Shown in pieces: positions 6,104 through 55,492 of a stretch of DNA of 60,363 nt. The position numbers were made by a program, and so were the translations under genes. Each line of letters begins with the position of its first letter. Position 1 is the stretch's first letter. The DNA is taken from assembly GCA_964356795.1 (NCBI GenBank), contig CAYHIK010000006.1:10286-70648 (forward strand). Reading direction: 5' to 3'. Origin of the DNA: an uncultured Candidatus Saccharibacteria bacterium (GTDB taxonomy: Bacteria; Patescibacteriota; Minisyncoccia; 2-02-FULL-40-12; GWA2-44-9). The notes beneath the pieces are model-generated. The model did not search any database. It was not told where the DNA came from and worked only from the letters and a program-made list of their open reading frames with translations.

Positions 6104-6793
6104 CTAGCGCTTTGGCCCAACCACGACCACGAACTCGCCGAGCACTTCATCGGCAGAAAGTGCGGCAGCGACCTCTTCGACAGTGCCCCGATAGAGGGTT
6201 TCGAACTTTTTGGTGAGCTCACGAGCCACGAGAATGGGACGATGTGGGGTTTCGGCAACCACAAACGCATCCTTCATTTCGGCGAGGCACTTCTCGATGC
6301 GATATTTCGACTCATAGAATACGATTGTGTCCTCGGATTCTGCTAATTCTCTGACAAACGTCTGCCGTCCCTTCTTGTGTGGTACGAATCCCCAGTATTG
6401 ATATCGGTCGGCAGGAAATCCGCTTACCGAGAGCGCTGCAACTCCGGCATTTGCGCCCACGATTGGCACCACACGCAAATCGGGAATCTCAACGAGTAAT
6501 AATTCAATGAGCCGGCCCCCTGGGTCGTTGATCCCCGGCGTTCCCGCATCGCTCACGAGTGCGAGATTTTTTCCCTCATGGAGCATCGCAAGCACACGAT
6601 CATCAACCCCCTTCCCGCTGTGCTGGTGATACGCGATGAGCGGTTTATGAATCTCAAAATGCGCGAGAAGTTTTACCGTCACGCGCGTGTCTTCGCACAG
6701 AATCGCATCCACCTCTTTCAGCGTCTCAATGGCCCGCAGGGTGATGTCCTGCAGGTTTCCAATGGGCGTTGCAACAATCGAGAGCGTCGCCAT
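6104..6793 (-). CDS. rsmI: 16S rRNA (cytidine1402-2'-O)-methyltransferase
   Basis: LSIVATPIGNLQDITLRAIETLKEVDAILCEDTR is a typical RsmI N-terminus. Confidence 0.85.
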   Translation of the reverse strand: MATLSIVATPIGNLQDITLRAIETLKEVDAILCEDTRVTVKLLAHFEIHKPLIAYHQHSGKGVDDRVLAMLHEGKNLALVSDAGTPGINDPGGRLIELLLVEIPDLRVVPIVGANAGVAALSVSGFPADRYQYWGFVPHKKGRQTFVRELAESEDTIVFYESKYRIEKCLAEMKDAFVVAETPHRPILVARELTKKFETLYRGTVEEVAAALSADEVLGEFVVVVGPKR

Positions 6794-6795
6794 AG

Positions 6796-7836
6796 CTATG
6801 CAGAACGACGAGATGACTTGAATCGCGCCATATCATCGAGCAACTCAACAAATATCGTAGCAACCGGCACGCCCACGAGCGCGCCCGCAACCCCCGCCAA
6901 CTGCCAACCAATCAAAATCGCGAGAATAACGACGACAGGATTGAGTCCGGTCGTCTTGCCCAGCACCAGCGGTACGAGAATGTGGTTCTCCGATTGCTGA
7001 ATCACCGTCCACATAATGAGCACCCAGAGCCCCAAGATTGGCTCTTGGATAAACGCCATCAACACCGCGGGAATTGCCGCCAACACTGGGCCCGCGATAG
7101 GGATAATCTCCAACATCATTGCAATGATTGCAAAGACGAGTGCAAATTTCACCCCAAGCAATGAAAGCCCAATGAACACCAGCAACCCCACGATAAGCGC
7201 GAGCAAGAGTTGCCCCTGCAGCCAAAGGCCCACCTTTATCTCCACGCGATGCCATAAATCAATCACATACTCCTCGTATCGCTCGGGGACCACTGCGGAA
7301 AGGAAGTTCTGAATACCGTCTTTCATTACTGAAAGATAGAACGAAATCACCAAAATTGAGACAAACGCAAACACTCCGCCGAACGCACCTGCGAGCAAAT
7401 TGAGCGCTGATTGCGAGAATTGCTGGAGATAGCCCGAGAGAAGCTCTAAAATGTTTTGTAATTCTGCAACAAAATCAAAGTATTTCGGCGACCCCTGTTG
7501 CACTGTGTCGAGTGAATCTGAAATCTGCATCGTGAGCTTCGGGAGCAACGACGTGAGGCTCGATAATTCAGAGAGCACCGATGGCAGTACGAGCGATGAG
7601 AGCACCACGCCGATTGCCAACACCATCAAATAAAGCGAAAGCACGCCCAAAATACGTGGCACGCCACGCTTTGCGAGCCAGGTCGCGAACGGTGAAACCC
7701 CAGATGCAACGACAATAGAAAACAATAAAATCAACACCACCTCCGAGAGGAGGTAGAGCACCCCGAATCCAAGCACGACCAACATTGCCCGGAACACACT
7801 CGCGGTTGAAATATCGAAAATTTGACGCTCTGCCAT
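6796..7836 (-). CDS. AI-2E/PerM (UPF0118) family membrane protein
   Basis: Multi-TM protein with an IIPIAGPVLAAIP-type C-terminal core. ATG 7836 was chosen because the longer ORF overlaps the upstream gene. Confidence 0.7.
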   Translation of the reverse strand: MAERQIFDISTASVFRAMLVVLGFGVLYLLSEVVLILLFSIVVASGVSPFATWLAKRGVPRILGVLSLYLMVLAIGVVLSSLVLPSVLSELSSLTSLLPKLTMQISDSLDTVQQGSPKYFDFVAELQNILELLSGYLQQFSQSALNLLAGAFGGVFAFVSILVISFYLSVMKDGIQNFLSAVVPERYEEYVIDLWHRVEIKVGLWLQGQLLLALIVGLLVFIGLSLLGVKFALVFAIIAMMLEIIPIAGPVLAAIPAVLMAFIQEPILGLWVLIMWTVIQQSENHILVPLVLGKTTGLNPVVVILAILIGWQLAGVAGALVGVPVATIFVELLDDMARFKSSRRSA

Positions 7837-7840
7837 AGAA

Positions 7841-9124
7841 TTATGTGAACTTGAGTACTTCGCGGAACTCGTCTTCCGCAACCGATGGGCCAATGATAGC
7901 GAGGTTGAGCTTATCATTCGTGAAGAGATCCGCGGCCACCGAGCGCACGTCGTCGCTCGTGATTGCCTGAATCTTCTGGAGCTCTTCTTCGGGGGTAATC
8001 ACGCGATCATAGTAGAGCACCGAACCGCCGTAATCATCCGCCACTCCGCCCGTGCTCTCGAGCGTAAACGCCATGCGCCCTTCGGCTTGGTCTTTCACGC
8101 GCTTGAGTTCTTCCTGGGTGACGCCGTCGGCGGCAATCTTCGCCATTTCCGCCAAAATAACCGTGATACCTTCAGCGGCTTTGGCACGATTGAGTCCTGC
8201 GCCTACTTCAAAATATCCGGAATCAGAGTAGTTCGAATTACCCGCCCACACATAGTACGCGAGTCCCCGCTTCTGGCGCACCTCATCGAATAATCTCGAG
8301 CTCATGCCCCCGCCCAACACCTGGGCCATGAGTGCCGCAGGATAGCGACGGTCGTCGAACATATCGAATCCCCGCACACCAAGATTCACATAGAGCTGTT
8401 CTACATCTTTGGAGATCCCTCGGAGCGCAGGGACTGATTGAGACTCCTTCACGGGCAATTTATCGGAGCGTTCCGCCTGACGGATTCGCGCAAATACCTC
8501 TTCAACTTTTGCCTTCACGTGTTCTGGGTCGATACCGCCTGCCACCGCGATGACGGTATTGGATGCGACGTAGTGCGTATCGAACCATGAGCGCAAATCG
8601 GGCGCCATCATTGCGTTAATTGTCCCCTCGGTACCACCAACTTCCCATCCTGCGGGTTGATCGCCATACAAAAGTTCTTCAAAAATGCGCCCAATGTGCT
8701 GTTGCGGATCATCGCGACGCATGCGTAATTCCTCATTGATTGGCCCACGCTCGATCTCCATCGCCCCCTGGTCGAGTTTTGAGTTTAAGAAAATATCGAA
8801 TACGACATCCATAATCGTATCGATCTTGGTGGCTGCCGCTTTTGCGTAGTATCCAGTAACCTCTTTGCCCGTAAATGCATTGTAGGATGCGCCGATTCCA
8901 TCGAGCTCACGACTAATGTCAACGTATCCGGGGCGCTTCTGTGTGCCTTTGAATATCATGTGCTCAAGAAAATGCGAAATACCACCCAAGTTCTTGGGCT
9001 CATACTTTGAACCGCACTTCACGAGCACCAACACCGTCGCTGTTTTGGCGGCCGGCATCGGCACCGTTACGAGGCGTAATCCCGAACTCAGTGTGTGTAA
9101 TTGATATGCAAGTCCTTGTTCCAT
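7841..9124 (-). CDS. M16 (pitrilysin) family zinc peptidase
   Basis: HFLEHMIFKGT (HxxEH) inverted zinc motif. Confidence 0.85.
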   Translation of the reverse strand: MEQGLAYQLHTLSSGLRLVTVPMPAAKTATVLVLVKCGSKYEPKNLGGISHFLEHMIFKGTQKRPGYVDISRELDGIGASYNAFTGKEVTGYYAKAAATKIDTIMDVVFDIFLNSKLDQGAMEIERGPINEELRMRRDDPQQHIGRIFEELLYGDQPAGWEVGGTEGTINAMMAPDLRSWFDTHYVASNTVIAVAGGIDPEHVKAKVEEVFARIRQAERSDKLPVKESQSVPALRGISKDVEQLYVNLGVRGFDMFDDRRYPAALMAQVLGGGMSSRLFDEVRQKRGLAYYVWAGNSNYSDSGYFEVGAGLNRAKAAEGITVILAEMAKIAADGVTQEELKRVKDQAEGRMAFTLESTGGVADDYGGSVLYYDRVITPEEELQKIQAITSDDVRSVAADLFTNDKLNLAIIGPSVAEDEFREVLKFT

Positions 9125-9164
9125 GTGCGTAGTATAACAGATGCGGTACCTCGTAATTATGTTT

Positions 9165-9237
9165 CTGCCGGTGAATGGAGTTGAACCATTTTCTGGTCGT
9201 TATGAGTGACCTGTTCTAACCGTTGAACTACACCGGC
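9165..9237 (-). tRNA. tRNA-Met(CAU)-like, non-canonical
   Basis: Reverse complement is GCCGGUG-UA-GUUC..GAAC-A-GGUCA-CUCAUAA-CGACC-AGAA-AAUGG-UUCAAACU-CCAUU-CACCGGC-A. 1:72 is paired, so elongator type. It has an A31:C39 mismatch and an 8-nt T loop. Confidence 0.6.
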
Positions 9238-9917
9238 TTGGAAATATGCTGAAGGAGCCCCTCCATAAGCCCGCTGATTATATAGTATAATTCAGTACTT
9301 TTCAAGACTGTGACGCGAAGCGTGCCGTAATACTTATTGTGATTCTCGTATCGCTTCTTCTGTTTTGTGCTCACAAATATCGTCTTTCGGAACTGCCGCG
9401 ATGAAATGCCCAGATAACGAGACCAGAATCGTTGTACGGCAGCCTCACGCTTGCGATGCATCTCGTTGATGAGGATCGAAACGGCTACATCACGAACGCT
9501 CCGTGCGAAAAACTTTTCGAGCCAGCGCATCATAAACATCACAACTCGCGGATCTGCATTCACGAAATGTACCTGCCTCATTGTTTTTGCTCCCTCCGCA
9601 AGATAGAGCGTAAGGCCAGCTGTAAAGAATTCGTCGTCGGAAAGGCTGGTAAATCGCGTGCGCCCCTCAATCGCATACTTTCCGATAACCGCCAACCGCT
9701 TTTCTCTTTGTCGTAATGCGCCGAGCACCTGTCCTCGCCGAACAGCACCTTGCTTTCGGCGAGAGAGGCTTAATTGCTGTGCGTTCGTGAGTGAGATATC
9801 ATGACACCACCGGCTCGCGCTTGATACTGAAACCCCAAGCTCTGCGGCTATTTCGTGGACACTCTTTCCTCGACTTCTTAGGCTCCGAGCCCGCAAACGT
9901 AATTCTGATTTAGCCAT
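9228..9917 (-). CDS. HTH protein with a LAGLIDADG-like (single-motif) endonuclease-like domain
   Basis: N-terminal SVHEIAAELGVSVSSASRW helix-turn-helix. GLTLYLAEGAK resembles a LAGLIDADG motif, followed by GTLRVTVLKSTELYYIISGL. The 3' end overlaps the tRNA at 9165-9237 by 10 nt. Confidence 0.45.
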   Translation of the reverse strand: MAKSELRLRARSLRSRGKSVHEIAAELGVSVSSASRWCHDISLTNAQQLSLSRRKQGAVRRGQVLGALRQREKRLAVIGKYAIEGRTRFTSLSDDEFFTAGLTLYLAEGAKTMRQVHFVNADPRVVMFMMRWLEKFFARSVRDVAVSILINEMHRKREAAVQRFWSRYLGISSRQFRKTIFVSTKQKKRYENHNKYYGTLRVTVLKSTELYYIISGLMEGLLQHISKPV

Positions 9918-9990
9918 GTATTTAGTATATCAGGTTTTTGATGCATACTACACGTGTACCTTTTTTTGAAGTACGAGGCATCAACATTCC

Positions 9991-10019
9991 TTGATATTCT
10001 GTGGCAAGTTATGTATACT
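9991..10019 (+). promoter_or_regulatory. Sigma70-like promoter for tRNA(CAU)
   Basis: TTGATA, 17 nt, TATACT, about 17 nt upstream of the tRNA 5' end. Confidence 0.55.
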
Positions 10020-10036
10020 CCATAGGTCCATCACAT

Positions 10037-10319
10037 CGCGGGGTGGAGCAGCGGTAGCTCGTCAGGCTCATAAGAAATTGTGACTTTACACAGAAATGTG
10101 TATCGAAAACACTCGAAACTGCGGGAAACCCCACCGGTTCATCCGAGGGCAATCCGCAACCAAGCCCCTCCTCCTCTCAAGGATTTGGGGAAGGCTCAGA
10201 GACTATAATGGGTGCATCCTCGCTCGCAAGAGACGGATGATGGGATAGTCCGACACTCCGAGGAATCGGATCAAAGCGAAATAAGGAGATGGTCGGGGGT
10301 TCGAATCCCTCCCCCGCAA
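10037..10319 (+). tRNA. Initiator-type tRNA(CAU) interrupted by a group I intron (possibly a pseudogene)
   Basis: 5' half CGCGGGG-UG-GAGC-AGCGGUA-GCUC-G-UCAGG-CUCAU (10037-10071). 3' end UGGUC-GGGGG-UUCGAAU-CCCUC-CCCCGCA-A (10290-10319). C1:A72 mismatch as in initiators. About 210 nt intervene after the anticodon. The expected CCUGA 3' anticodon-stem strand was not found. Confidence 0.6.
10072..10282 (+). ncRNA. Group I intron (3' boundary uncertain)
   Basis: P1 UCAU(10068-71)/GUGA(10080-83) with U:G at the splice site. P2 UACACA-GAAA-UGUGUA (10087-10102). AAACUGCGGGAAAC (10116-29) pairs with CCGCA (10154-58). CAGAGACUAUAAUGG (10197-10211). UCCGA-GGAA-UCGGA hairpin (10257-70). These resemble Azoarcus/Tetrahymena core segments recalled from memory. 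Confidence 0.65.
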
Positions 10320-10331
10320 CAAGTAAATCAA

Positions 10332-10355
10332 GGCGCCCCTTTACGGGGCGTTTTG
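10332..10355 (+). terminator. Intrinsic terminator
   Basis: GCGCCCC-UUUAC-GGGGCG followed by UUUU. Confidence 0.7.
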
Positions 10356-10359
10356 GTTT

Positions 10360-10567
10360 ACTTTGTTCGGGTCAGGATTCGAAGGGTATCCGGAAAATCT
10401 GAACTGCTTCAGGTTTTCCGGAACCCCGGCTCTGGAGGAGTGGTGAGGCCTGCGCCATAGGCGCCTGCCGAGCCGCGGAGGAAGAGGAATCCCTCTACAA
10501 TGCTTGAGGCCGAATCCCTCACCCGCGCCACGGTTGACAGTGCACCAGAAACAGAGCACTGTTTTTT
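10360..10567 (+). ncRNA. Structured leader or small RNA of unknown class
   Basis: 14-bp hairpin 10390-10421. Nested stems CGGCUC/GAGCCG and GCGCC/GGCGC. Twin GAGG..CCUC hairpins. Terminator CAGUGC..GCACUG plus U6 (10538-10567). The next ORF starts 33 nt downstream. Confidence 0.35.
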
Positions 10568-10599
10568 GGTTGCTTAACAACCCAACTAAAGGAGTCACG

Positions 10600-10947
10600 A
10601 TGCCGAAACGATCACTTGCTTCGGTCAATTACGCCCAGAATGTTATTCCTCCCGATTACAAGTGTGACGGTTGCGGAGCTACAGAGGTCAAGCTGTGGCG
10701 AGAATATCAAACATTTGCGGACCATACGAAGCTACTCTGTGTTGACTGCGCTGGCAAAGATCAGAAAAAAGATACGAGCAACGTTGACGACAAAGGATTT
10801 CGGACGGATCAGCGGTTCGGTTATAAAACAGACCAGATTGGCTGGTATATGCCCGCCGTCCCCATTGAGGGAGATGACACCTACTGGGGCTACGCATCAG
10901 TCCCTCAGGAGGGCATCGCTTGGTGGCGAAATCTACCAACCAGATAG
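10600..10947 (+). CDS. Small zinc-ribbon protein (hypothetical)
   Basis: AAGGAG 7 nt upstream of ATG 10600. CDGCG..CVDC. Confidence 0.6.
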   Translation: MPKRSLASVNYAQNVIPPDYKCDGCGATEVKLWREYQTFADHTKLLCVDCAGKDQKKDTSNVDDKGFRTDQRFGYKTDQIGWYMPAVPIEGDDTYWGYASVPQEGIAWWRNLPTR

Positions 10948-11032
10948 GCCGTCATCAAACTCCCACACCAGCTACACCGTATCTGTATCTTCAGGCGGCA
11001 CCTATGCCAAAAAATAGGAGCAAGGAAACCGT

Positions 11033-11293
11033 ATGATTACGTCTGTCGCACAGGGAGTCAAGAACTACAGAGCCGAACTCCGCGCATACGCTCGGTGGGT
11101 AAATAAGAAGAAAAAGGAGTACGGAAACGAGAACCCCCTGTCTGGCTGGGGTGGTAGCGACTGGAGAAGGATCAACGGCTGGAACGACGAACTCCGAGCC
11201 ATGGAAAAGGTCCTCGGGCTCACCGCACAAGAAGCCAAGAGCATCGAAGTCGAGTGCCGGGTTGCGCAGAAGAAACCCAAGTCGTCGTCCTAG
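11033..11293 (+). CDS. Hypothetical small basic protein
   Basis: AGGAGCAAGG upstream of the ATG; a terminator follows. Confidence 0.5.
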   Translation: MITSVAQGVKNYRAELRAYARWVNKKKKEYGNENPLSGWGGSDWRRINGWNDELRAMEKVLGLTAQEAKSIEVECRVAQKKPKSSS

Positions 11294-11305
11294 CCACGAG
11301 AGCCC

Positions 11306-11333
11306 GCCCATCCCTAGGGTGGGCCCTTTCTTA
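11306..11333. terminator. Bidirectional intrinsic terminator
   Basis: GCCCAUCC-CUA-GGGUGGGC hairpin between convergent genes. Confidence 0.6.
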
Positions 11334-12143
11334 TTAACCGTTCACGTGACGGGGGTATTTTTCGACTTCTTCCTTCAGCTCTTGATTGCTCGGACGCTTC
11401 TTTACCAGTCTCCGCCAACCGTAATCTCCGGCTGGATCCCATGGACAAATTGAGCGCATAGCGACTAAGTGTGGCTGCTCTACTCTCCCTGTGTCGGGGT
11501 CGCGTCTCGTGTACCAAATAATCTGACAATTTCTAATCCTATCAACGGGGTCGTCAGACTTGTTCAGGCGGATAAAATCATCATGTCCCATATGTTCCAG
11601 CTCCAGCTGGAGTGCGCGCATCACGTGCCCATGACAAACGGCGATAACGCGACGATCAGATGCTTCGCGAGCAATATGCTCCAAGAAATCCGCCTTCAGC
11701 CTCAAGCAGAGCGCGGGAATAGACTCTCCACCACCAGCAGGATACGAAAGAAATGGGTCTTGCTCATATTGCCGCTGTTCGCGCTCAAAGAGTGATTTCT
11801 TCTCATCATCGGGAAGATTATCAAGTAGTCCGTGGTCACGCTCGCGCAATTGATATTCGACTCGCCACTCTGCCTGAGGAAGATTCAATAGCGCCGCTGT
11901 TTCCTTGGCTCGGATGTAATCTGAAACATAGAATCTATCGAGTGGCGTGGGTATATTCTTCCGCAACCATTCGCCAGCTGATGTTGCTTGTTCGATACCC
12001 TTATCAGTCAATCGAAATGATCTACTGTGTTTTTCGCGGAATTCAGGAGTAAAGAATCGATTATCTCCCTTCCGACTGAATTTGTTGGCAACATTTCCCT
12101 CCGACTCTCCATGACGTACGAGGATAATATCGACAGGTAGCAT
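11334..12143 (-). CDS. Histidine phosphatase (phosphoglycerate mutase-like) family protein
   Basis: ILVRHGESEGN (RHG motif) and CHGHVMRAL. ATG 12143; the track start 12170 is a TTG. Confidence 0.75.
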   Translation of the reverse strand: MLPVDIILVRHGESEGNVANKFSRKGDNRFFTPEFREKHSRSFRLTDKGIEQATSAGEWLRKNIPTPLDRFYVSDYIRAKETAALLNLPQAEWRVEYQLRERDHGLLDNLPDDEKKSLFEREQRQYEQDPFLSYPAGGGESIPALCLRLKADFLEHIAREASDRRVIAVCHGHVMRALQLELEHMGHDDFIRLNKSDDPVDRIRNCQIIWYTRRDPDTGRVEQPHLVAMRSICPWDPAGDYGWRRLVKKRPSNQELKEEVEKYPRHVNG

Positions 12144-12266
12144 GTTTTGATATTCGAATAAATTGCGCAATCTGTCAAAAACCCCGCCGAGACTCCCCTT
12201 AGGCCATTACGAAGTATTTGACGTTAAAGAATATTTGTGTTATATTGAAATAGAAGGAGGCATGAC

Positions 12267-12659
12267 ATGGACACGCTGTGGTTTTCGGTGGCTCTCGGAC
12301 TACTGGCATTCGCCCTCGGGGCGTGGTGGCAGCACAATCGGCTGAGCCGCTCCCTCACCAGCCTGAAGTGGTACCGGGCAAGCCACCTGCGTAAACAAGG
12401 GTGGTCCCTGGGATTCGGACAGTATGAGCTCCAATCTCTGGACGGCGGGAAGAACTGGTTCTCCGTCATCAGCGTCGGTGGCGGCGGGATCCAAGCAACG
12501 GGGCCAGCGGACCTGAAGCTCTTGGACCACTTGGCGGCATGGGATGCGCTGACCGCTCGGGTTGTCCGAGGTGGTCCCCTGAACCTATCACACGCAGACG
12601 ACCGAAAACTCCTGGAGCGCGCTGGACTCCAGGCGGTCTCCCGCGAGTGCACGTCGTAG
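12267..12659 (+). CDS. Hypothetical membrane-anchored protein
   Basis: GGAGG upstream of the ATG, N-terminal TM helix, terminator follows. Confidence 0.55.
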   Translation: MDTLWFSVALGLLAFALGAWWQHNRLSRSLTSLKWYRASHLRKQGWSLGFGQYELQSLDGGKNWFSVISVGGGGIQATGPADLKLLDHLAAWDALTARVVRGGPLNLSHADDRKLLERAGLQAVSRECTS

Positions 12660-12752
12660 CAACACAAGTCTCACGCCCCACCATCGGTGGGGCGTTTCTT
12701 ATTTGACTAATCACCATTTTTCGTGGTATTATATATCTCAGGAGGTGTCCCA

Positions 12753-12971
12753 ATGTCGAAGCCCAAAGAATCGCTTGCCGGCAAGGCCTCGTGCGGATGC
12801 GTCTACCACGCCAAAGACGGGATTCCGTGCGAGCACGATCTCGGCTACGCCGCTGGTCGCGCCGGAACGCCACTCCCCGACGGCGCGAGTGACGAGTTCC
12901 GCGTCGGCTGGGTACAGGGCGACTCGGCCGCCGATGCATCCAGCAACAGCCATCAATTGTGGGGCAGCTAG
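12753..12971 (+). CDS. Hypothetical small protein
   Basis: CAGGAGG 7 nt upstream of ATG 12753. Confidence 0.5.
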   Translation: MSKPKESLAGKASCGCVYHAKDGIPCEHDLGYAAGRAGTPLPDGASDEFRVGWVQGDSAADASSNSHQLWGS

Positions 12972-12980
12972 GAGGTTTCA

Positions 12981-13370
12981 ATGCAGAACTTAGCAGGAGA
13001 CGAAAACTGCGACGAGTTCATCGCCCGGGAATTGAGCCGGTCGCGGATAAATGCCGTTCAGGGCAAGCGAAGTTGCAGAGAAGTCCCCGCCTCGATTACC
13101 GGCAAGCTAGGCCCATTCACATTCACTCGAGCCTGGTATTACTGGATGGTCAGTGGACCAACTCCCCTGGCAGTCGCCAAGGAACTCTACGCAGATCCGG
13201 TTGGCCGCGCCGATGTGCGAGTAGAGGGACACTGCGGATGTCCCGCCCCCGAAAAGCCATGGACAATCCGGAAGGATGGAGAGGAATTCGTGATGTCCTA
13301 TCACATCGACACCGAAGTGGGCTTGCGACTCTTCACGGACACCATCCGCAAGCACGGCCTCGACAAGTAG
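12981..13370 (+). CDS. Hypothetical protein
   Basis: TAGGAGG upstream; strong terminator 13373-13407. Confidence 0.55.
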   Translation: MQNLAGDENCDEFIARELSRSRINAVQGKRSCREVPASITGKLGPFTFTRAWYYWMVSGPTPLAVAKELYADPVGRADVRVEGHCGCPAPEKPWTIRKDGEEFVMSYHIDTEVGLRLFTDTIRKHGLDK

Positions 13371-13448
13371 CCAGCCCCCCCGCTTCGGCGGGGGGGGCTT
13401 TTCTTTTAAATAACTTGTAAATGTTGTACTGTGATTTCGGAGGTTGTT

Positions 13449-21032: not shown

Positions 21033-21098
21033 GTGAAAAATATAGCAGTTTTCAGCAGGAATGAAAAAGCCCCGACACAGTTCGTGTCGGGGCGGTAC

Positions 21099-21743
21099 TC
21101 ACCGATGCATCTCCGCGATGGTGACCGCGGAAGTGTCCGTCACCTTCTTAATGGCCCGCGAAAGCCGCTTCTGACTCACCTTATCAGCGGGCATCTCAGC
21201 CAACTCGCGCTGGAGAATGTCACGAACCTGCGCCTTCACGTCGGCATCGTAGCAGCCCAGCATGAACACCGCGCTCGGCCCATTCACGCTGATCTCTTCG
21301 CCAATCTCGCCGGTAAACTCTACGAGCCGAACATCTCCGGAACGACTCGCACCGAGACAAAGCACGGGGAGGCCAAGCGGCTCGCGCGCATCTTCCAAGA
21401 TGTACCGGCAGTACGCGCCAAGCGCGGTAAGCGCGGCTGGTGCGTGGAAATCTTTTCCTCCGGGACTGTAGAGCTCACGCGACTCCCGAAACGCAGCCTT
21501 GATGACCGATTCGATATCCCTGAAGTGTGCGCCAGAGGGAGAGGCGTAGAAGATCGAGAAGTTCTCGAAATGCACCGTCCCCGGAGACCCATCGGTCGCC
21601 GTGACGACGTATCCGATGACGTCATGTTCGGACTGGGGAGGGCGCACGAATGCGACGAAGTGCTTCGCCAACATCGCCTGCGCGGCCGCAACCTTGGTGA
21701 GGTATGCGGTAAGCGCAACGCTCTTACATCCGCGATTCTTCAT
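21099..21743 (-). CDS. Proteasome alpha-subunit-like protein (no N-terminal Thr)
   Basis: TGATG overlap with the upstream beta-like gene. RGCKSVALTAY resembles the actinobacterial PrcA segment AKSVVALAY (from memory). Confidence 0.45.
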   Translation of the reverse strand: MKNRGCKSVALTAYLTKVAAAQAMLAKHFVAFVRPPQSEHDVIGYVVTATDGSPGTVHFENFSIFYASPSGAHFRDIESVIKAAFRESRELYSPGGKDFHAPAALTALGAYCRYILEDAREPLGLPVLCLGASRSGDVRLVEFTGEIGEEISVNGPSAVFMLGCYDADVKAQVRDILQRELAEMPADKVSQKRLSRAIKKVTDTSAVTIAEMHR

Positions 21744-22579
21744 CACTTCCTCCGTCGAGGCTTCGGCTGACCCGTAGCCAGAAGCTTCGCGATGCGCTGA
21801 TTTGCCCAACGCTTCGTCAACAGCGCGGTACCGAGGGCGCGTTCGATTTCATCGCTCGGCAAGAACTCGACGCCCTTTTTCGAGGTAATCACAACCACCG
21901 TGGGCGTTGCAATCACCGCATCCGAACTTCCCGAGTCACGCCAGCCCGAGTGGGCAAGACAGTGCATGGCAACGATAAGCGCGTCTTTTCGCGAAAGATC
22001 CGGAACCCAGCGTGCATCGAGCTGGTCTTCCACGCGGAATCCACCAGATCCATTACTCGCATGGTGCGGACGCAGCAAGACGCACCCATCACTCTCCAGC
22101 TCGAAGATATGAGCGCCTTCGGCGTCCAATCCAGCGAGGATAGAACCGGCTTCGAACGCGTCACCGTAGTACGCGTGCCAGAATCGCAACAGCTCGGAAA
22201 GGTACGCGCTCTGACCCTCGATGCTCAAGGGGTAATCGTTCGAATCGCGGAATTCGCGGTTCGCGGTAGCCAGCGTCTTCTCGATGAGCTGAATGGAGCT
22301 GACGTCGCCACATCCCAACACAACAGACAACTGATCCACCTGCCGAATCTTGATACTGTCCTGCGCAACAATGGAGTACCCCCATCCCGACGTCTTACGG
22401 TCGGCGGCGCACATGATGCCGTCAGCGTATTTCATCGTGAAGATGGTTGTCCCGCTATGAATCCGATGCTTTCCTGGCCCCGACGAACCACGAGCGCCCG
22501 CCCGCATAGTAGCGGCCTTCCGAAGGGCACTCGCTGGAAATGCGTCTCGTACCGCCCGTTGCAATAGATCGCTTCTCAC
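21743..22579 (-). CDS. Proteasome beta-subunit-like Ntn hydrolase with propeptide
   Basis: HSG|TTIFTMKYADGIMCAADRKTS gives Thr1 and Asp17. SIKIRQV gives a Lys33-like residue. GCGDVSS. GTG start 22579 with AGGAGG 7 nt upstream. Confidence 0.65.
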   Translation of the reverse strand: MRSDLLQRAVRDAFPASALRKAATMRAGARGSSGPGKHRIHSGTTIFTMKYADGIMCAADRKTSGWGYSIVAQDSIKIRQVDQLSVVLGCGDVSSIQLIEKTLATANREFRDSNDYPLSIEGQSAYLSELLRFWHAYYGDAFEAGSILAGLDAEGAHIFELESDGCVLLRPHHASNGSGGFRVEDQLDARWVPDLSRKDALIVAMHCLAHSGWRDSGSSDAVIATPTVVVITSKKGVEFLPSDEIERALGTALLTKRWANQRIAKLLATGQPKPRRRK

Positions 22580-22638
22580 CTGATACCTCCTAGGAAGTAA
22601 ACGAACGTTGCGCAGACGGTACTATAAATGCCCGATAA

Positions 22639-24545: not shown

Positions 24546-24607
24546 ACGCCCTCCAATTGGCAAGGTTCGTTCTGTACGGTACAGTGATGTCACAGACCTG
24601 TAAAGCA

Positions 24608-25054
24608 ATGGCTGATTACGCAACCAACCCACGCGCACGATTCGATTACGAAATCCTCGAGACCCTCGAGGCAGGAATTACGTTGCGTGGCTACGAGGTC
24701 AAAAGCATTAAAACGGGCCGCATCAGCATCAAGGGCGCATACGTGCGCATGATTGCCGGCGAACCCTGGCTCGTGGGCGCGTCGATGCCTCCCTATCAAC
24801 CTGGCAACGTTCCACCAGAATACAAAGAACAAGCAGACCGAAAACTCCTCTTGAGCAGAAGCCAAATCGCATCCCTTATCGGGCTCGCGCAATCGCACGG
24901 CATCACACTCGTTCCCCTGCGCCTCTACGACAAAAAAGGAATGATTAAACTCGAGATTGGTGTCGCGCGAGGCAAAAAGAAATACGACAAACGCGAGAGT
25001 ATCAAGAAAAAAGATACTGAGCGTGCGCGCATGCGTGGCATGAGTGAGGAATAA
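24608..25054 (+). CDS. smpB: SsrA-binding protein
   Basis: NPRARFDYEILETLEAGI.L.G.EVKS, GARGKKKYDKRE. Confidence 0.9.
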   Translation: MADYATNPRARFDYEILETLEAGITLRGYEVKSIKTGRISIKGAYVRMIAGEPWLVGASMPPYQPGNVPPEYKEQADRKLLLSRSQIASLIGLAQSHGITLVPLRLYDKKGMIKLEIGVARGKKKYDKRESIKKKDTERARMRGMSEE

Positions 25055-26481: not shown

Positions 26482-26829
26482 GGGGATGATCGGTTTCGAC
26501 ACTGCATCATACCTTCACGATGCCATATGCGGTCGGCCGGTAACCGCACAAAACACCGGTCAAACATATAACTGGCTATTCTAACGCCAATTACGCGTTC
26601 GCCTAAGGGCGTCGCGCATCGCACCCTGACGCTTGCTACGGGATTCTGCGGTGTCATCTAGCTCGCTCTGGTTGACCACACGTGTGTCGTGGTCCGCCGA
26701 AACAATGACACACTAGTTTGCGATTATTTTTCCGGTTCTCTACTCGCGAGCAACATACCAAATCGGATACTGTGGTAGCACATCGTGATCGTATCGTAGT
26801 GGACTAGGGTTCGATTCCCTACATCTCCA
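26482..26829 (+). ncRNA. ssrA: tmRNA
   Basis: 5' GGGGAUGAUCGGUUUCGAC. Tag frame ..GYSNANYAFA ends with TAA at 26604-26606. 3' GGACUAGGGUUCGAUUCCCUA-CAUCUCC-A. The acceptor pairs with G3:U70. CCA is not encoded. Confidence 0.85.
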
Positions 26830-28348
26830 CACCCTGTGAGTTGTTAGTCGAAAGTAGCTGAAAAGCCTTGATAGGAAGCGAGAAATTAGCGGTTCCAAAT
26901 CCGTCCTCTTTGCTGTAGGTAAGTTTGTCCGTGAAAACTAGCTTTAGAACCATCCTCTTGTCCTCCAATGTGCCATTTGTCCATTTGCCATAAGGGTTTC
27001 CGATGTAATCTAGGACGCAATGCATAGCGGTTTCAAAATTAAGCGCCATTGTCCGAGGAACCTTCATCCGTTCAATCAAAAGAGCCTCTTCTACGGAAAG
27101 CTCCGAAATACGACCCTCATAGGCCCTCAGCAAATCCTCTGCCCCTGTCTTTACAACCCTTGATACAAGCGCTCGCTTCTCCTCTCTAATGCTTGAAAGT
27201 TCTTGCTCGTGATTCTTAACCTCTTTGTTCGCTCGAATCATTCTCTTATTCCAGGACTCCGTGAATAGTGCTATAGAATAATCAATCAATTCCCTCCTAG
27301 GAGTTGCCCTCTTCAAGATGCTCTCGAAATCGCCCTCGATTTTTTCTCTCCTCACGCTTTTATTCTTCCAAGCACATTCATGTCCAGTAAACCGATAGTA
27401 TGGCAATCTTACGCTCCTGCCAGTACACCAACTCGCCGTCAGTGGGTGTTCACAATCGCTACAAACCACACTTCCGCGTAGCGGAAAATCCGCACTCATC
27501 CCCTTGTGAGAATTAAATCTTGCTCGACCGCTCAATCTATCCTGTATCTGACGAAAAACAGCCAGGGATACTAATGGCTCGTGATGCCCTATCCGTAGCT
27601 CAACACCCCATCTTGGATATTCTATATACCCAGCGTAGATAATCCTCGTGAGCAACCTCTTTACTACTTCGAGATAGACGCGTTTGCCACGCGCAAAATC
27701 TCTACTTTGCAAAAAGCCTTGCACCTCAACCTGTGATGCAAATCTTCCAGAGGCAAATCCTTCAAGCGCCTCCCTGATTGTCCCAGCTACGGGCTCTACT
27801 GGTCGCAATAACTTCCCATGAGTAGGATCTTTCGATGCTCGGTAGCCTGGCGGCGGGAAAAATGGCCAGTACCCAGATTCAAGTCGCGCTCTCTGCTTCT
27901 GCATAACCTGCCTCTTATTCTGTTCTCGTTCGAGTTGGTTCTGTGCTGCAAATATCGTCTCAACAAAAGTCCCCTCTGGAGAGTCGTCAAAGTTATAATT
28001 AAGACATCTTGGTATAACATTCCTGACCTTGAAAGCACTTCTTAAATTCCAGTGAAATACGGTGTCACGAGCGAATCGCTTGAGATCGTCAAAGATAACG
28101 ACGTATTGCTCATGCGGCTTACCGTCAATATACGCTAGAAGCTCCCTCATCGCCGGACGATTCAAAAAGTCACCACCTCCAGTGATTGTGTCGGGAAATA
28201 CCCTCTCGGTATGCCAACCGTTTTCAGCGGCGAATGCTCTACACCGATGCTCTTGGCTATCCAGTCCATGCCCCTCAGACTTCTGACGACCAGAGGACAC
28301 TCTGCAGTAGATTAATGCCCTGCGTTGTTGCTCATCATTCAAAGTCAT
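26819..28348 (-). CDS. Large serine recombinase
   Basis: ALIYCRVSSGRQ catalytic Ser region, VVIFDDLKRFARD, Cys-rich zinc-ribbon region (CSDCEHPL), long coiled-coil C-terminus. The stop codon lies inside ssrA. Confidence 0.85.
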   Translation of the reverse strand: MTLNDEQQRRALIYCRVSSGRQKSEGHGLDSQEHRCRAFAAENGWHTERVFPDTITGGGDFLNRPAMRELLAYIDGKPHEQYVVIFDDLKRFARDTVFHWNLRSAFKVRNVIPRCLNYNFDDSPEGTFVETIFAAQNQLEREQNKRQVMQKQRARLESGYWPFFPPPGYRASKDPTHGKLLRPVEPVAGTIREALEGFASGRFASQVEVQGFLQSRDFARGKRVYLEVVKRLLTRIIYAGYIEYPRWGVELRIGHHEPLVSLAVFRQIQDRLSGRARFNSHKGMSADFPLRGSVVCSDCEHPLTASWCTGRSVRLPYYRFTGHECAWKNKSVRREKIEGDFESILKRATPRRELIDYSIALFTESWNKRMIRANKEVKNHEQELSSIREEKRALVSRVVKTGAEDLLRAYEGRISELSVEEALLIERMKVPRTMALNFETAMHCVLDYIGNPYGKWTNGTLEDKRMVLKLVFTDKLTYSKEDGFGTANFSLPIKAFQLLSTNNSQGVEM

Positions 28349-28626
28349 TCGAAAAGGGTGTCTAAATATCTTTCTATCATTGCACTTATTGTATCATGGG
28401 CCCGTTGTAATTCTTGAGCGCTCAACCCCAGGGCAAGCAGCGCCTTCACGCACTCTTCTAAAGATTTTATTGGCACTCTTTCTTCCAATTTACAATCAAG
28501 TTTAGTGAATACTCTCAACAAAACGTCCCCACACTCAAATACGCACCTAAAACATCGCCACACGACCCGCTTGAGCCGATTTCTTGTCGTCCTCAGAGGT
28601 TCTTTTCTCATTCGACAGCTCGACAA
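28345..28626 (-). CDS. Small ORF coupled to the recombinase (start uncertain, probably about 28530)
   Basis: ATGA overlap with the recombinase start. The 5' part overlaps the next ORF in another frame. Confidence 0.3.
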   Translation of the reverse strand: MSSCRMRKEPLRTTRNRLKRVVWRCFRCVFECGDVLLRVFTKLDCKLEERVPIKSLEECVKALLALGLSAQELQRAHDTISAMIERYLDTLFE

Positions 28627-28813
28627 GGTGTCGGATGAGGAGTTTCTTATCAGCTGCGCAATAATCGCTCTTATCGACTAGGCGATTAAAATGTCGCGAG
28701 ATCATACTTCTACTAAAATGGCCCGTCCGAATTGCCCTTGAGAACGCTACAAAATCTGAAAGCTGAGGATTCTCGCTCAACGCTGCTCTAAATCTGCGCT
28801 CGATAGACTTCAT
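28547..28813 (-). CDS. Hypothetical small protein (possible regulator)
   Basis: 88-aa ORF at the head of the recombinase operon. Confidence 0.35.
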   Translation of the reverse strand: MKSIERRFRAALSENPQLSDFVAFSRAIRTGHFSRSMISRHFNRLVDKSDYCAADKKLLIRHLVELSNEKRTSEDDKKSAQAGRVAMF

Positions 28814-28842
28814 TTGATTGATTTAATTAATTAATACAAAAA

Positions 28843-28915
28843 CCCACTTAATACTGATCAGGTGGATTGTCGCTAAACAACACCTGCCCAGTATTAAATG
28901 GGTATAGCGACAATC
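28843..28915. repeat. Two interleaved inverted repeats
   Basis: CCCACTTAATACTG (28843-56) pairs with CAGTATTAAATGGG (28889-902). GATTGTCGCTA (28865-75) pairs with TAGCGACAATC (28905-15). Confidence 0.7.
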
Positions 28916-29294
28916 GGTAGGTCGCTGGGAGAAACAAAAAATGCCTCTTCAGCGAGATCGAATTCTTGACTATTACGTCAGAAACTCAATTTCACTGAAC
29001 AGGCATTTTACAACCAGTTTTAATTGCTTGGTTAGGCAACAGTTCAGCTCCACTCTTTGGCAAGGGTCTTTTTTAACGAGGTTACCACGAATCCTCCTGT
29101 GAGTGGGGGCTTAAGCGAAGTCGCATCGACGCCGCTCAAGTCTATCTTTTATTTATAATGATCTAATCTATCCCTACTCGTATATTATAGCATATCGAAT
29201 ATTTTGGAACAACAATCTGCAGGATGTGAACTTCATCTATTCCTAAAAAAGACAGCGGTGGTACACTCGCTATATAATTTGAGATTGTAAATCC

Positions 29295-30059
29295 ATGCTC
29301 AATATCATCGGAAAACTGCTCATTGCCTCGATTATTTTTATTGGCGGGTTCTCCCTGCCTCGCAGGGATGCTCCACCCGCAACAACAAGTACGCCACCCC
29401 CTCCTATTGTGGTAAACACCCAGGATCCTACGCCGACTATTATCTCGAAGAGGAGGAGTGCCCCAACTCCAGCACCCACGACGAACCCACCCATCGCTAC
29501 ATCGACTCCGACACTCCAGCCGAGCCTCCCGCAAATCCATCAATCCATTTCGACGACCGTACCTCTCATAGCCACCGCCATACCGATACAGACGCCAAAC
29601 ATGGAGAAAGTGCTTTTAGACTCTCTGAGCAAAGTCTACACAGATAACCTACAAAAAATTGCTGAAATGCAAAAAGACTGGGAAGATCTGCAAGCTAAAG
29701 AAAAACCGATCTGGGACCAGATCGCCGTCATCAACCAAGCTCAAAAAGATTTAGGCTGTGGAAAATTTGACCTAGCACACACAACTGGCGAAATCGGTCA
29801 GAAGTGCAACCTATACGATGCCGAGGTCATGCAGCTGTCTGCCCAAATCTCGTCATTGACTAGCCAATACGCAGCATCTCACGGTTTTAGCGTTGCTCCA
29901 AGTACAAAATTTCAAGATACCGTTAGCGGTGCAGGAACCCACTACACGTTCTACTACGATGCTCAACTTGGACATGGCGATATCTATAATCAAGCAAACC
30001 CACTAGACCATCGCAGGGTTTATTGCTCTTCCGGGGTCTGCAATATTTATGGCCCCTAG
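29295..30059 (+). CDS. Secreted/anchored protein with Pro/Thr-rich linker (hypothetical)
   Basis: N-terminal TM, PPATTSTPPPP linker, Cys-containing C-terminal domain. Confidence 0.55.
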   Translation: MLNIIGKLLIASIIFIGGFSLPRRDAPPATTSTPPPPIVVNTQDPTPTIISKRRSAPTPAPTTNPPIATSTPTLQPSLPQIHQSISTTVPLIATAIPIQTPNMEKVLLDSLSKVYTDNLQKIAEMQKDWEDLQAKEKPIWDQIAVINQAQKDLGCGKFDLAHTTGEIGQKCNLYDAEVMQLSAQISSLTSQYAASHGFSVAPSTKFQDTVSGAGTHYTFYYDAQLGHGDIYNQANPLDHRRVYCSSGVCNIYGP

Positions 30060-30137
30060 CAGTGTAATCGTCGTATAGGACTACTAAGCTGAACCCAGCC
30101 CCCCATAGTTTATACTGCGGTATCGGTAGCTATGGTG

Positions 30138-31004
30138 TTACTGAAACTTTTTAACCCCTTCTTTGATTTCTTCTTCAGTGGAAGGCGGCGTGATGCTTAG
30201 ATAAAGTGAGTCTAGCTCGGCAAAACTCTTCCTATCACCAAGGTGACCATACAGCGCCTTAAGCTGTATGAGTGTGGAGCTCATTGCCGTGATTAGATGG
30301 CAAATGCTTTCACGCGTCCAATGGTATCCCGCCACAAGATCCTCATCTAACCCTTCAGAAAAAACATCAACGAACTCCATAACAGCTGGATATGAATTAT
30401 GGGGGTATTTAGAAAATAGTCTATATATAAAAGTCTTCATTTCCCTTATAGGAAGTTTTTCGCCCGATAAGGGGTGGGTGCCAAGGATTTCTTCATACTT
30501 CTGACGGCTCGTAGCTGCTTCTATAACCTCTCCCTTAAACCACTCAACAAGGTAGCTCCCCTTTTTATCCTCACTAAAGAGCATTATCAAGTCTAAATTC
30601 TCGTGTAGAGATCTGAGAAGTTCCAGCAACTCCTGGTTCCTGCCCGTCCTAGCTAGCCCAAATAAGACCTCCCACCTTCTCATAACTTTCCAGAAAAGGA
30701 GATAGACTGCGCATGCTTTTGTTTGTTCAATCGGCTTACGAATGTACGCCCGCAAACTTTTAATATAGGGGGTCATTTTATGAAAAATCGTCTCTAGTCT
30801 TGCAACGGCTTCTTCAATGCATGCCTCATCTTGCCTACGCTGAAACCCAGGATACTGTGGATTCCTACTTGCATACCTTTTCGCCGCGCCACTCCTGAAT
30901 TTCTCTCTAGCAGACTCGATAGACTCTTGAATAGACTCCCTTATCAATTCTCTCGGAGTTTTCTTAGGTGACATTTTCTGGATATAAATAAATTCCCCCA
31001 CCAT
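30138..31004 (-). CDS. Hypothetical all-helical protein, island cargo
   Basis: 288-aa ORF, AT-rich. Only a vague resemblance to AbiV/DUF5677-like helical proteins (low confidence, from memory). Confidence 0.45.
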   Translation of the reverse strand: MVGEFIYIQKMSPKKTPRELIRESIQESIESAREKFRSGAAKRYASRNPQYPGFQRRQDEACIEEAVARLETIFHKMTPYIKSLRAYIRKPIEQTKACAVYLLFWKVMRRWEVLFGLARTGRNQELLELLRSLHENLDLIMLFSEDKKGSYLVEWFKGEVIEAATSRQKYEEILGTHPLSGEKLPIREMKTFIYRLFSKYPHNSYPAVMEFVDVFSEGLDEDLVAGYHWTRESICHLITAMSSTLIQLKALYGHLGDRKSFAELDSLYLSITPPSTEEEIKEGVKKFQ

Positions 31005-31028
31005 TCTCGCCTGCTGTAGTATCGGGCA

Positions 31029-31517
31029 TTATCCCTGTTCGATTTTTATACTCTTTGGATTCATAACGACGAAACCGGGTATTTTCTTAAAATCATCCTT
31101 ATCATCGAAGGTTAGAATATGCTCTATGCTATTGTTTTTCATAATCACACTATGAACCACATCTTGGAATCCAGAATTATATTGCAAAATACCCCTCTTA
31201 ACGTGATAGAAGAACTCGTTAAAATCATAATCCTTCAGTGGGCTGGTTGGCACAAACTCAATCTTTAAGGGCCCCAGCCGCCTTTCACCGGTAAATGAAT
31301 TCTCTATCTCTGTTACCTTATCCCGGTCCATCTTTTTTGTTATTACCAAGACCTTGACCATTTCAGTCATTGCCCACGAAGATGTTACGAGCTTATCGCT
31401 TGGAATATTTGAAAACGCGTCTAGAGCCTTGAGAACCCAGGCGTGCTTTTCTTTTTCATCATCGGTATTTGAGTAATAAGCGACGAGTATATTGGCGTCT
31501 AAGTATATACGCCTCAT
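31029..31517 (-). CDS. PIN-domain protein (VapC-like toxin)
   Basis: MRRIYLDANILVAYY N-terminus; later acidic positions (MTEMVKV, TFDDKD). Confidence 0.7.
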   Translation of the reverse strand: MRRIYLDANILVAYYSNTDDEKEKHAWVLKALDAFSNIPSDKLVTSSWAMTEMVKVLVITKKMDRDKVTEIENSFTGERRLGPLKIEFVPTSPLKDYDFNEFFYHVKRGILQYNSGFQDVVHSVIMKNNSIEHILTFDDKDDFKKIPGFVVMNPKSIKIEQG

Positions 31518-31675
31518 TTTCTTTTTTGTCTCACCTTGAATACAACCGGGAGCTTTGCCTGTATGGTTTGAATGGCACCAAAAACAACTATCTGCCCATC
31601 TCTTGTTCTAAATTTCACCTCTACGGGCTTCTTGATTGTCTTCAATGCTTGGAATTTTACGACCTTGTTTGCCAT
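31514..31675 (-). CDS. 53-aa putative antitoxin
   Basis: Below the ORF-track size cutoff. MANKVVKFQALKTIKKPVEVKFRTRDGQIVVFGAIQTIQAKLPVVFKVRQKRK. ATGA overlap with the PIN start. Confidence 0.5.
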   Translation of the reverse strand: MANKVVKFQALKTIKKPVEVKFRTRDGQIVVFGAIQTIQAKLPVVFKVRQKRK

Positions 31676-31759
31676 TTGAATCTTGATAGCTATCTAGGAG
31701 AATATATAATATTTCTTCGTAATTCCATAGGCACACCGCCTTGCAATATGATACTCACT

Positions 31760-31789
31760 GGGACGAGGGTTCAAATCCTGGCATGTGAC
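31760..31789 (+). other. tmRNA/tRNA 3'-end-like fragment
   Basis: GGGACGAGGGTTCAAATCCTGGCATGTGAC; T-arm-like with 4 of 5 stem pairs. Confidence 0.35.
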
Positions 31790-31863
31790 TATGGAACACT
31801 GACAAATCTAGTGCCTATCAGCGGATTTCCCCGATTCATCATGAGTTGGTAGCCTGCAAATAT

Positions 31864-31907
31864 GTAGGATTCCAGTTGATTCCAATTATTTCGTATCATC
31901 TCCACCA
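31864..31907 (+). other. Displaced, decayed original ssrA 3' end (attR-side repeat)
   Basis: GTAGGATTCC..GATTCC..CATCTCCACCA. It shares CATCTCCAC with 26822-26830 and retains CCA. Confidence 0.55.
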
Positions 31908-31916
31908 AATAAAAAT

Positions 31917-31946
31917 ACTCGCCCGCATGGGTGGGTATTTTTATTT
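31917..31946 (+). terminator. Intrinsic terminator (likely the original ssrA terminator)
   Basis: ACUCGCCC-GCAU-GGGUGGGU followed by AUUUUUAUUU. Confidence 0.65.
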
Positions 31947-32034
31947 GCGTAGACGAAGACGGAAGGAACCGAACAATTCTTGCGCCTAGCTAATTTAGTG
32001 GTATTATATTGCACGTTGAGATAGGAGGTAGCGC

Positions 32035-55364: not shown

Positions 55365-55492
55365 GCGAGTCTCCTCTCTGACTAGCTTGTCAAACAGCGA
55401 AAACGATGGTGCGAACATACAATACCGCGCCAGAAGTGTCAATTATCGCCTCGTTGCCGATGATACTATTCTGTGGTAGACTAGGCTTCGCT

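Follow-up and report, generated by a model that had tools for sequence, protein, structure and literature searches.

The window analysed here is a stretch of 60,363 nucleotides (C6:10286-70648 of the 14-contig assembly G000), and it carries on its reverse strand two adjoining genes, designated beta1 and alpha1, which are best regarded as a new two-subunit proteasome variant, specific to its lineage and coexisting in this genome with a conventional Pup-linked proteasome. The assembly amounts to 798,581 bp with a completeness estimate of 100, which bears out the ultra-small genome assumed in the initial annotation of the window. The favoured reading, to which a probability of about 0.65 may be assigned, is that the pair encodes a diverged, lineage-specific and Pup-independent two-subunit core of the 20S type with an extremely diverged alpha subunit, whose assembly and activity we infer. 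According to this reading, beta1 would be made with a 43-residue propeptide, and the expected self-cleavage between Gly43 and Thr44 would expose the Thr1 nucleophile of an N-terminal nucleophile (Ntn) hydrolase site. The product of alpha1 would be a catalytically dead alpha-type subunit, with an H0 helix and an alpha-beta-beta-alpha sandwich and lacking the Thr, and its rings would cap those of beta1 to give a self-compartmentalised protease of the alpha7-beta7-beta7-alpha7 type. The pair would be a vertically inherited cassette placed in the slot between htrA and argS in one order of Patescibacteria (candidate phyla radiation, CPR).

The beta1 product matches PF00227 over residues 41-222 (E 1.5e-21, 77.4 bits at a cut-off of 22.4), and the HslV model NF003964 is absent from its NCBIfam matches at E<=1. 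A word-indexed search returned nine relatives with 97% to 38% identity, two of which are entered at NCBI as 'hypothetical protein' of Candidatus Pacebacteria/Paceibacterota. In the alignment of beta1 with these relatives (A1, 10 close family members), T44, T45, D60, K77, G91, G177-S178-G179 and R214-D215-S216-G217-S218-S219 are invariant (10/10), and the same holds for M1 and P15 in the leader of 43 residues. The residues T44, T45, D60, K77, G91, G177 and G179 are also invariant in an alignment to which an annotated archaeal PsmB and an actinobacterial PrcB open reading frame (ORF) were added. The catalytic residues of beta subunits are canonically numbered Thr1, Asp17, Lys33, Gly47, Ser129, Asp166 and Ser169. 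The equivalents of Ser129, Asp166 and Ser169 in beta1 are S178, D215 and S218, invariant among the 10 close members, and the catalytic Lys is found at mature position 34, not 33. Moreover, the beta1 profile gave 402 matches among PDB sequences at E<=0.01, and the best 60 of these 402 were all proteasome beta subunits, headed by eukaryotic beta5-type chains (113 bits) and archaeal beta chains (94-96 bits); no actinobacterial beta was present among the best 60. Residue 1 of the mature solved beta chains aligns to position 44 of the beta1 profile, in agreement with the Thr that the initial annotation had placed at the mature N-terminus, and processing between Gly43 and Thr44, exposing Thr1, is predicted. 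The PF00227 match and the invariant columns likewise uphold the earlier view of this ORF as a beta-type protein with a propeptide of about 43 residues, a Thr1, an Asp and a Lys. Judged from its sequence, beta1 thus has the full catalytic equipment of a 20S beta-type Ntn hydrolase together with a propeptide, and it is expected to be processed and active.

Instead of a general protease, beta1 could be an enzyme with a specialised task, for example a connectase-like ligase or transpeptidase, or a protein that processes itself and has another substrate, but this is very improbable. Proteasome homologues are functionally diverse, according to the accessible part of PMC8665760, and the secondary catalytic Ser and Asp are changed in some distant beta1 orthologues, which would suit such a role. 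However, beta1 possesses the full Thr/Asp/Lys/Gly set and a propeptide and has a partner of the alpha type, and its best sequence matches are bona fide 20S beta subunits.

The assignment of alpha1 comes from its orthologues and its predicted fold. The gene situated 3' of beta1 in four related metagenome-assembled genome contigs encodes an alpha1 orthologue of 25-27% identity, and a word-indexed homologue search with alpha1 recovered only alpha1 itself. In an exhaustive profile search among 1.84 billion proteins, a profile of five alpha1 sequences matched 46 cluster representatives at E<=1e-3, 39 of them also at 1e-10 and 16 at 1e-30; among 10 family representatives looked up, two are labelled 'hypothetical protein' and eight are nameless. 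The existence of this family of 46 cluster representatives, along with adjacency to beta1 in 18/18 carrier genomes, rules out that the alpha1 ORF is a product of chance. A 45-row alignment (A3) was prepared after removal of the search hit to the window's own protein (P0001) and of three partial multi-stretch matches (P0052, P0054 and P0055, of 588, 295 and 1472 residues), and no conserved Thr occurs among its nearly invariant columns (M1, K17, F29, F62, D133, G145 and G163). AlphaFold2, run on this alignment with no templates, produced a model with a predicted local distance difference test score (pLDDT) of 93.1 and a predicted template modelling (TM) score of 0.89, which superseded an unusable single-sequence model (pLDDT 43). 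The model begins with helix 9-24 and four strands, continues with two long helices and three strands, and ends in two helices and one last strand; helix 9-24 followed by strand 29-34 corresponds to an H0 helix ahead of the proteasome sandwich.

The structural comparisons are consistent with this assignment. Foldseek returned at least 500 PDB matches of the alpha1 model at E<=0.001, and the 38 listed were all 20S or 26S proteasome entries, with a chain of the M. tuberculosis 20S proteasome at the top (E 3.1e-7, TM 0.64). The listed matches included T. acidophilum chain A entries, the beta subunit there being chain B or H. With VIA-align, residues 10-214 of the model were superposed on residues 9-215 of the M. 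tuberculosis chain (Z 15.3, root mean square deviation 3.5, 183 aligned), and the Rhodococcus 'proteasome alpha-type subunit 1' (1q5q_A) followed with Z 14.5. These matches are nearly tied, since eukaryotic chains also reach Z 13.6-14.5. The ESM Atlas gave nothing usable for alpha1 (pLDDT 0.35 for its own model, feature matches of at most 0.84, TM of at most 0.35). In profile-profile comparison by hhalign, alpha1 aligned weakly with the family of alpha2, the alpha-like subunit of the Pup-linked system on contig C11, at 65% probability (E 5.9e-5, 200 collinear columns), with beta1 at 46% and with beta2, the beta subunit of that system, at 8.5%. The model therewith supports the proteasome fold expected of the second ORF. 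We conclude that alpha1 is a real gene under constraint, the product of which would have an alpha-subunit fold, H0 helix included, and no Thr. The claim of a Thr-less second ORF in the prcB-prcA order is thus sustained, and it is the predicted fold, not the sequence, that sustains it.

A different role for alpha1 has to be weighed at this point. The beta1 product may form homo-oligomeric rings, as HslV, BPH and Anbu do, with alpha1 as an accessory protein (an assembly chaperone, cap or inhibitor) and not a stoichiometric ring subunit. We regard this as unlikely, although it would agree with the far stronger divergence of alpha1 (25-27% vs 41-49% identity for beta1 in the same orthologous pairs) and with the lack of any sequence-model match to alpha1. 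The adjacency of the two genes in 18/18 carriers and their translational coupling suggest equimolar production, the alpha1 model can be superposed on alpha subunits from one end to the other, H0 helix included, and beta1 retains a long conserved propeptide. Such long propeptides are typical of beta subunits that assemble on alpha rings and are absent from HslV. A complex prediction with mature beta1 and alpha1 scored 0.07 (mark 0.32), a value that has no bearing for or against binding.

The arrangement of the two genes (Table 1) agrees with the favoured reading of a two-subunit core. The second ORF ends at 21099 on the reverse strand, and its longest form starts with TTG at 21809 and encodes 236 residues. 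The 214-residue form starts with the ATG at 21743-21741, which has one base in common with the beta1 stop TGA at 21745-21743 (TGATG). This shorter form is the right one, because the orthologues of alpha1 begin at the same Met. The overlap of the two ORFs reported earlier is therewith confirmed in its coordinates, and alpha1 has a GGAGG of its own. The pair is flanked by htrA (Trypsin_2 and PDZ) and argS, as identified with Pfam, and no pup, dop/pafA or AAA unfoldase gene lies beside it, as the initial annotation had stated. A terminator-like hairpin may close the two-gene operon before argS, and a consensus scan also placed a promoter-like site for argS after this hairpin. The number of terminator-like sites in the region is not above chance (2 vs 1.9 expected from shuffling), and therefore the hairpin is supported by its position and stem strength only. 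The TGATG overlap, the two GGAGG sites, the 3' hairpin and the htrA and argS flanks make the pair look like a self-contained, bicistronic and translationally coupled operon. At synonymous sites, which are saturated in both genes, the proportion of differences (pS) was 0.71-0.76 for beta1 and 0.71-0.80 for alpha1, vs far lower nonsynonymous proportions (pN) of 0.14-0.21 and 0.19-0.28, respectively, which speaks for constraint on both genes. No RNA sequencing runs holding the beta1-alpha1 locus were listed.

Table 1. Features of the beta1-alpha1 operon (window coordinates) and of the Pup-proteasome-like cluster on contig C11 (contig coordinates).
Feature	Position	Strand	Remarks
Shine-Dalgarno GGAGG of beta1	22586..22590	-	6 nt 5' of GTG start; read from sequence
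beta1 propeptide, residues 1-43	22451..22579	-	family-conserved; cleavage predicted between Gly43 and Thr44, processing presumed
beta1, proteasome beta-type subunit, 278 aa	21743..22579	-	PF00227; GTG start; Thr44 = predicted Thr1; D60, K77, G91, G177-S178-G179, D215/S218
Shine-Dalgarno GGAGG of alpha1, within 3' end of beta1	21749..21753	-	5 nt 5' of ATG; read from sequence
alpha1, diverged Thr-less alpha-type subunit, 214 aa	21099..21743	-	predicted fold; start overlaps beta1 stop
Terminator-like hairpin	21069..21093	-	11-bp stem, 8 G-C pairs, T run; begins 6 nt past alpha1 stop (consensus scan)
Pup-ligase family gene (Dop/PafA-like)	C11 6678-8285	-	PF03136 E 1e-87; Dop and PafA models of NCBIfam at 237.8 and 197.1 bits, neither reaching its cut-off
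Pup-like acidic ORF, 52 aa	C11 6518-6676	-	directly after ligase gene; own GGAGG; ends in Gln
beta2, 241 aa	C11	opposite to ligase	HGTT motif; PF00227 E 5e-15
alpha2, 237 aa	C11		with beta2; TIGR03691 E 0.003
Mpa-like ATPase	C11		coiled-coil region, both proteasomal OB domains, AAA module; TIGR03689 286.8 bits, under cut-off
Conserved protein, 530 aa	C11 11812-13404		after Mpa-like gene; no Pfam or NCBIfam family

The position of beta1 among related subunits was determined with a maximum-likelihood tree of 32 rows, which comprised 17 beta1, 10 beta2 and one other CPR beta sequence, together with PsmB and PsmA of Natrinema and PrcB and PrcA of Nonomuraea, and which was rooted on the two alpha references (PsmA and PrcA). 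The beta1 sequence of locus L043 (a short contig from the genus of L039) and the 236-residue protein of L047 were left out. All 17 beta1 rows formed one clade (97/95), and beta2, PrcB, PsmB and the other CPR beta were placed on the opposite side of the tree (92/84). The beta1 and beta2 proteins are about 20% identical, and hhalign relates them at 99.4%. Since beta1 forms its own clade apart from beta2, it is not a recent copy of beta2. The sequences therefore point to beta1 as a separate clade of beta-type subunits, the origin of which the tree does not fix.

The known systems resemble the pair only in part. It shares with PrcB/PrcA of M. tuberculosis and Rhodococcus the order of beta before alpha and a beta propeptide with Thr1, and the best structural matches of the alpha1 model belong to the same actinobacterial 20S proteasomes. 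In contrast to these, the window pair has no linked pup, dop, pafA or mpa, beta1 branches apart from the PrcB reference, and alpha1 is recognised by neither TIGR03691 nor PF00227. The archaeal and eukaryotic beta subunits (PsmB, beta5) have the highest sequence similarity to the beta1 profile, with Thr1 aligned, but PsmB groups with beta2 and PrcB in the tree and not with beta1, and beta1 remains below the archaeal cut-off. The archaeal system also differs in that the window pair has a bacterial host and no PAN-type ATPase linked to it. HslV, Anbu and BPH have in common with beta1 the PF00227 Ntn-hydrolase fold family and the Thr nucleophile. They are, however, single subunit genes, as the accessible parts of two papers describe (PMC8665760; PMC5666114), whereas beta1 carries a propeptide of 43 residues and is accompanied by a conserved alpha-type partner; Anbu and BPH are set apart by description. 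The suggestion of a new branch alongside HslV, Anbu and BPH therefore does not suit the pair, which has two subunits where those systems have one. In it, beta1 forms a beta-type clade of its own and has eukaryotic and archaeal beta subunits as its nearest solved relatives by sequence.

The initial annotation had also implied that the genome is devoid of a Pup system, which proved incorrect. A second PF00227 gene lies outside the window on contig C11, in a complete Pup-proteasome-like cluster at 6518-13404 (locus L019) that contains a PF03136 gene, a Pup-like ORF, beta2 and alpha2, and an Mpa-type ATPase (Table 1). The PF03136 match and the full-length Mpa-type ATPase of this contig are the only ones in the genome. 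The best PDB matches of the beta2 profile were the beta subunits of Rhodococcus (119.8 bits) and M. tuberculosis (111.6 bits). Equivalent small ORFs are found 3' of the ligase gene in five related clusters. Neither a Pup nor a UBact model of Pfam and NCBIfam matched the Pup-like ORFs, and for this reason they are regarded as candidates only. The Pfam Pup model (PF05639) gave in this genome merely a 14.5-bit match inside a 916-residue frame, and a genome-wide scan for small ORFs ending in G-G/S-Q/E found nothing convincing. In another family of the order (loci L020, L021, L026 and L028; genomes G070, G073, G075 and G013), each cluster has two Pup-ligase paralogues, and ORFs of 55-61 residues that end in GGQ, GGE or SGE, the classic Pup C-terminus, lie between the ligase genes and beta2, just upstream of the latter. 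The conserved 530-residue protein of C11 was considered as a second, diverged Pup ligase and rejected, as no similarity was found. A 2017 paper reportedly described 'UBact' in Gram-negative phyla, which may bear on the C11 cluster and not on the window pair. The gene content of C11 indicates that the genome has a Pup-proteasome-like system with its own core subunits, beta2 and alpha2. This cluster has the same two-subunit beta-alpha arrangement as the window pair; unlike the pair, it possesses a ligase, a tag candidate and an OB-domain ATPase, and its distribution is different.

The distribution was followed in 105 genomes of the order, G000 included, and in 400 other genomes spread evenly over the phylum. 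Within the order, PF00227 was matched in 25 genomes, the alpha1 profile in 18 and PF03136 in 11. In 18/18 carriers alpha1 has a gene of the beta1 type beside it, arranged as htrA<>beta1-alpha1-argS, and in the 400 other genomes of the phylum the alpha1 profile had 0 matches at E<=1e-5. PF00227 was matched in 14/400 of the latter, strongly in only two. The pair and the Pup ligase occur together in three genomes (G000, G039 and G060), and eight genomes have the ligase without the pair. No PF03136 match was obtained in 15/18 pair carriers, 13 of which are at least 90% complete, and TIGR03689 matches in these 15 cover the AAA module only, as in FtsH of the window. An exception is G077, a pair carrier without the ligase, which also has a two-module AAA frame; frames of about 600 residues with two AAA modules in a Cdc48-like arrangement were seen in G077:C98 and G031:C82. 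These gene contents indicate that the pair is not tied to pupylation, most carriers being without the Pup ligase and the Mpa-type ATPase.

These data also bear on the possibility that beta1 and alpha1 are alternative subunits which mix with beta2 and alpha2 and use the Mpa-like ATPase and the Pup-like tag, in the manner of the paralogous subunits of Rhodococcus. Both systems are indeed present in G000, G039 and G060, and in the profile-profile comparisons alpha1 comes closest to alpha2. Such a mixed-subunit role cannot be general, because only 3/18 pair carriers have the Pup ligase, and beta1 and beta2, with about 20% identity, stand on opposite sides of the tree; we therefore consider it improbable. 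For the Pup-independent core favoured here, the most likely action would be to degrade unfolded or disordered proteins and peptides independently of ATP, or to degrade with the help of an activator so far unrecognised, since the pair is not tied to pupylation and the Pup cluster of the genome has its own beta2 and alpha2. The pair would act beside Lon (contig C1) and FtsH (window 55406-57331), which are both present in G000; ClpP (PF00574) and an HslV-type gene were not found in this assembly.

Several observations weigh against the reading of the pair as a two-subunit 20S-type core. The scores of beta1 lie far below both NCBIfam beta equivalog cut-offs, with 66.9 bits for the best match, the archaeal beta model TIGR03634 (cut-off 224), and 53.4 bits for the bacterial 20S beta model TIGR03690 (cut-off 191.9); beta1 is therefore beta-type, but an equivalog of neither. 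The beta1 orthologue of L039 (G076), from a different family of the same order, keeps Thr1, Asp and Lys and has Cys in the S178 column and Ser in the D215 column. Therefore, the secondary catalytic residues are not conserved family-wide. The tree contains a single archaeal and a single actinobacterial reference pair and carries long-branch warnings. In the case of alpha1, no family was matched in Pfam (E<=0.1; the best E, 0.16, belongs to unrelated models) or in NCBIfam (E<=1), including PF00227, TIGR03691 and TIGR03633. Profiles built from 5 and from 45 alpha1 sequences retrieved no proteasome chain among the PDB sequences, but only chance-level matches (E>=0.2), and hhalign of the alpha1 profile with single sequences of PrcA and PsmA stayed below 1% probability, as it did with PrcB. 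Judged by these searches, alpha1 is too diverged for any sequence model to recognise. The 'PrcA-like segment' noted earlier in the second ORF thus lacks statistical support as far as sequence is concerned. The placement by PF00227 model and tree holds for beta1, which matches the model and falls in a separate beta clade, and fails for the second ORF, for which there is no model match. The assignment of alpha1 consequently depends on one predicted structure and the 65% profile match to alpha2, and ring assembly, propeptide processing and activity are what we infer. A further point is the occurrence of ClpP in 7/18 genomes with the pair vs 39/87 without it. The pair as a plain replacement of ClpP was accordingly rejected, because ClpP does not anticorrelate with it.

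As far as the accessible part of PMC5666114 extends, the proteasome is missing in bacteria except for some Actinobacteria and Nitrospirae; it also reports subunit clusters from Armatimonadetes and Verrucomicrobia and explains the Gram-negative ones by transfer from Actinobacteria. A catalogue from 2021 presents 22 new proteasome homologues (PMC8665760, in its accessible part). Its main text mentions neither Candidatus, CPR, Parcubacteria nor Patescibacteria, and its supplements and cluster map might hold these betas as 'Psm-beta, other bacteria'. A full-text search of the open-access literature found no description of proteasomes in CPR bacteria. The present case is that of a 0.8-Mb CPR genome which devotes genes to two distinct cores of the 20S type, one of them with a full Pup-like system and the other a lineage-specific pair without a linked tag, ligase or unfoldase, the alpha of which is labelled 'hypothetical protein' or left nameless in databases. 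Should the particle assemble, it would represent a natural bacterial proteasome of minimal make-up and without an activator. If the favoured reading is true, the pair would also offer a new data point on how an alpha subunit may diverge while its beta stays recognisable, and it would help to explain the proteostasis of ultra-small symbionts without ClpP. A bolder view, held only tentatively and rather doubtful at present, is that the pair represents a third, old two-subunit lineage, neither actinobacterial and Pup-linked nor archaeal and eukaryotic, kept in only one CPR order and working with neither tag nor ligase nor an AAA unfoldase of its own. In ClpP-less genomes it might then serve as an interchangeable quality-control module for unfolded or ribosome-rescue products, as the variable slot and the nearby smpB and tmRNA (transfer-messenger RNA) genes could suggest.

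The content of the htrA/argS slot (window 21033-22638; loci L030, L038, L041, L042 and L053-L057) varies among close relatives. It may be the beta1-alpha1 pair, a ClpP-like gene (G062 and G054), both (G056, G078, G005 and G094) or nothing (G061 and G021), and htrA directly adjoins argS in five close relatives that lack the pair. Elsewhere in the window, smpB is located at 24557-25054 and the tmRNA gene at 26482-26830 on the forward strand, with the tag peptide GYSNANYAFA. A large serine recombinase (Resolvase, Recombinase and Zn ribbon; 26819-28348, reverse strand) abuts the 3' end of the tmRNA gene, and the GC content drops to 0.42-0.49 across about 26-32 kb (window 26482-32000). This region looks like an island or a prophage integrated at ssrA. 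Outside the order, weak PF00227 matches (E 1e-4 to 1e-6) were seen in frames of about 310-340 residues in about a dozen unrelated CPR genomes (G270, G399, G407, G454, G147, G426, G184, G269, G491 and others), and these frames may represent another diverged family of proteasome homologues.

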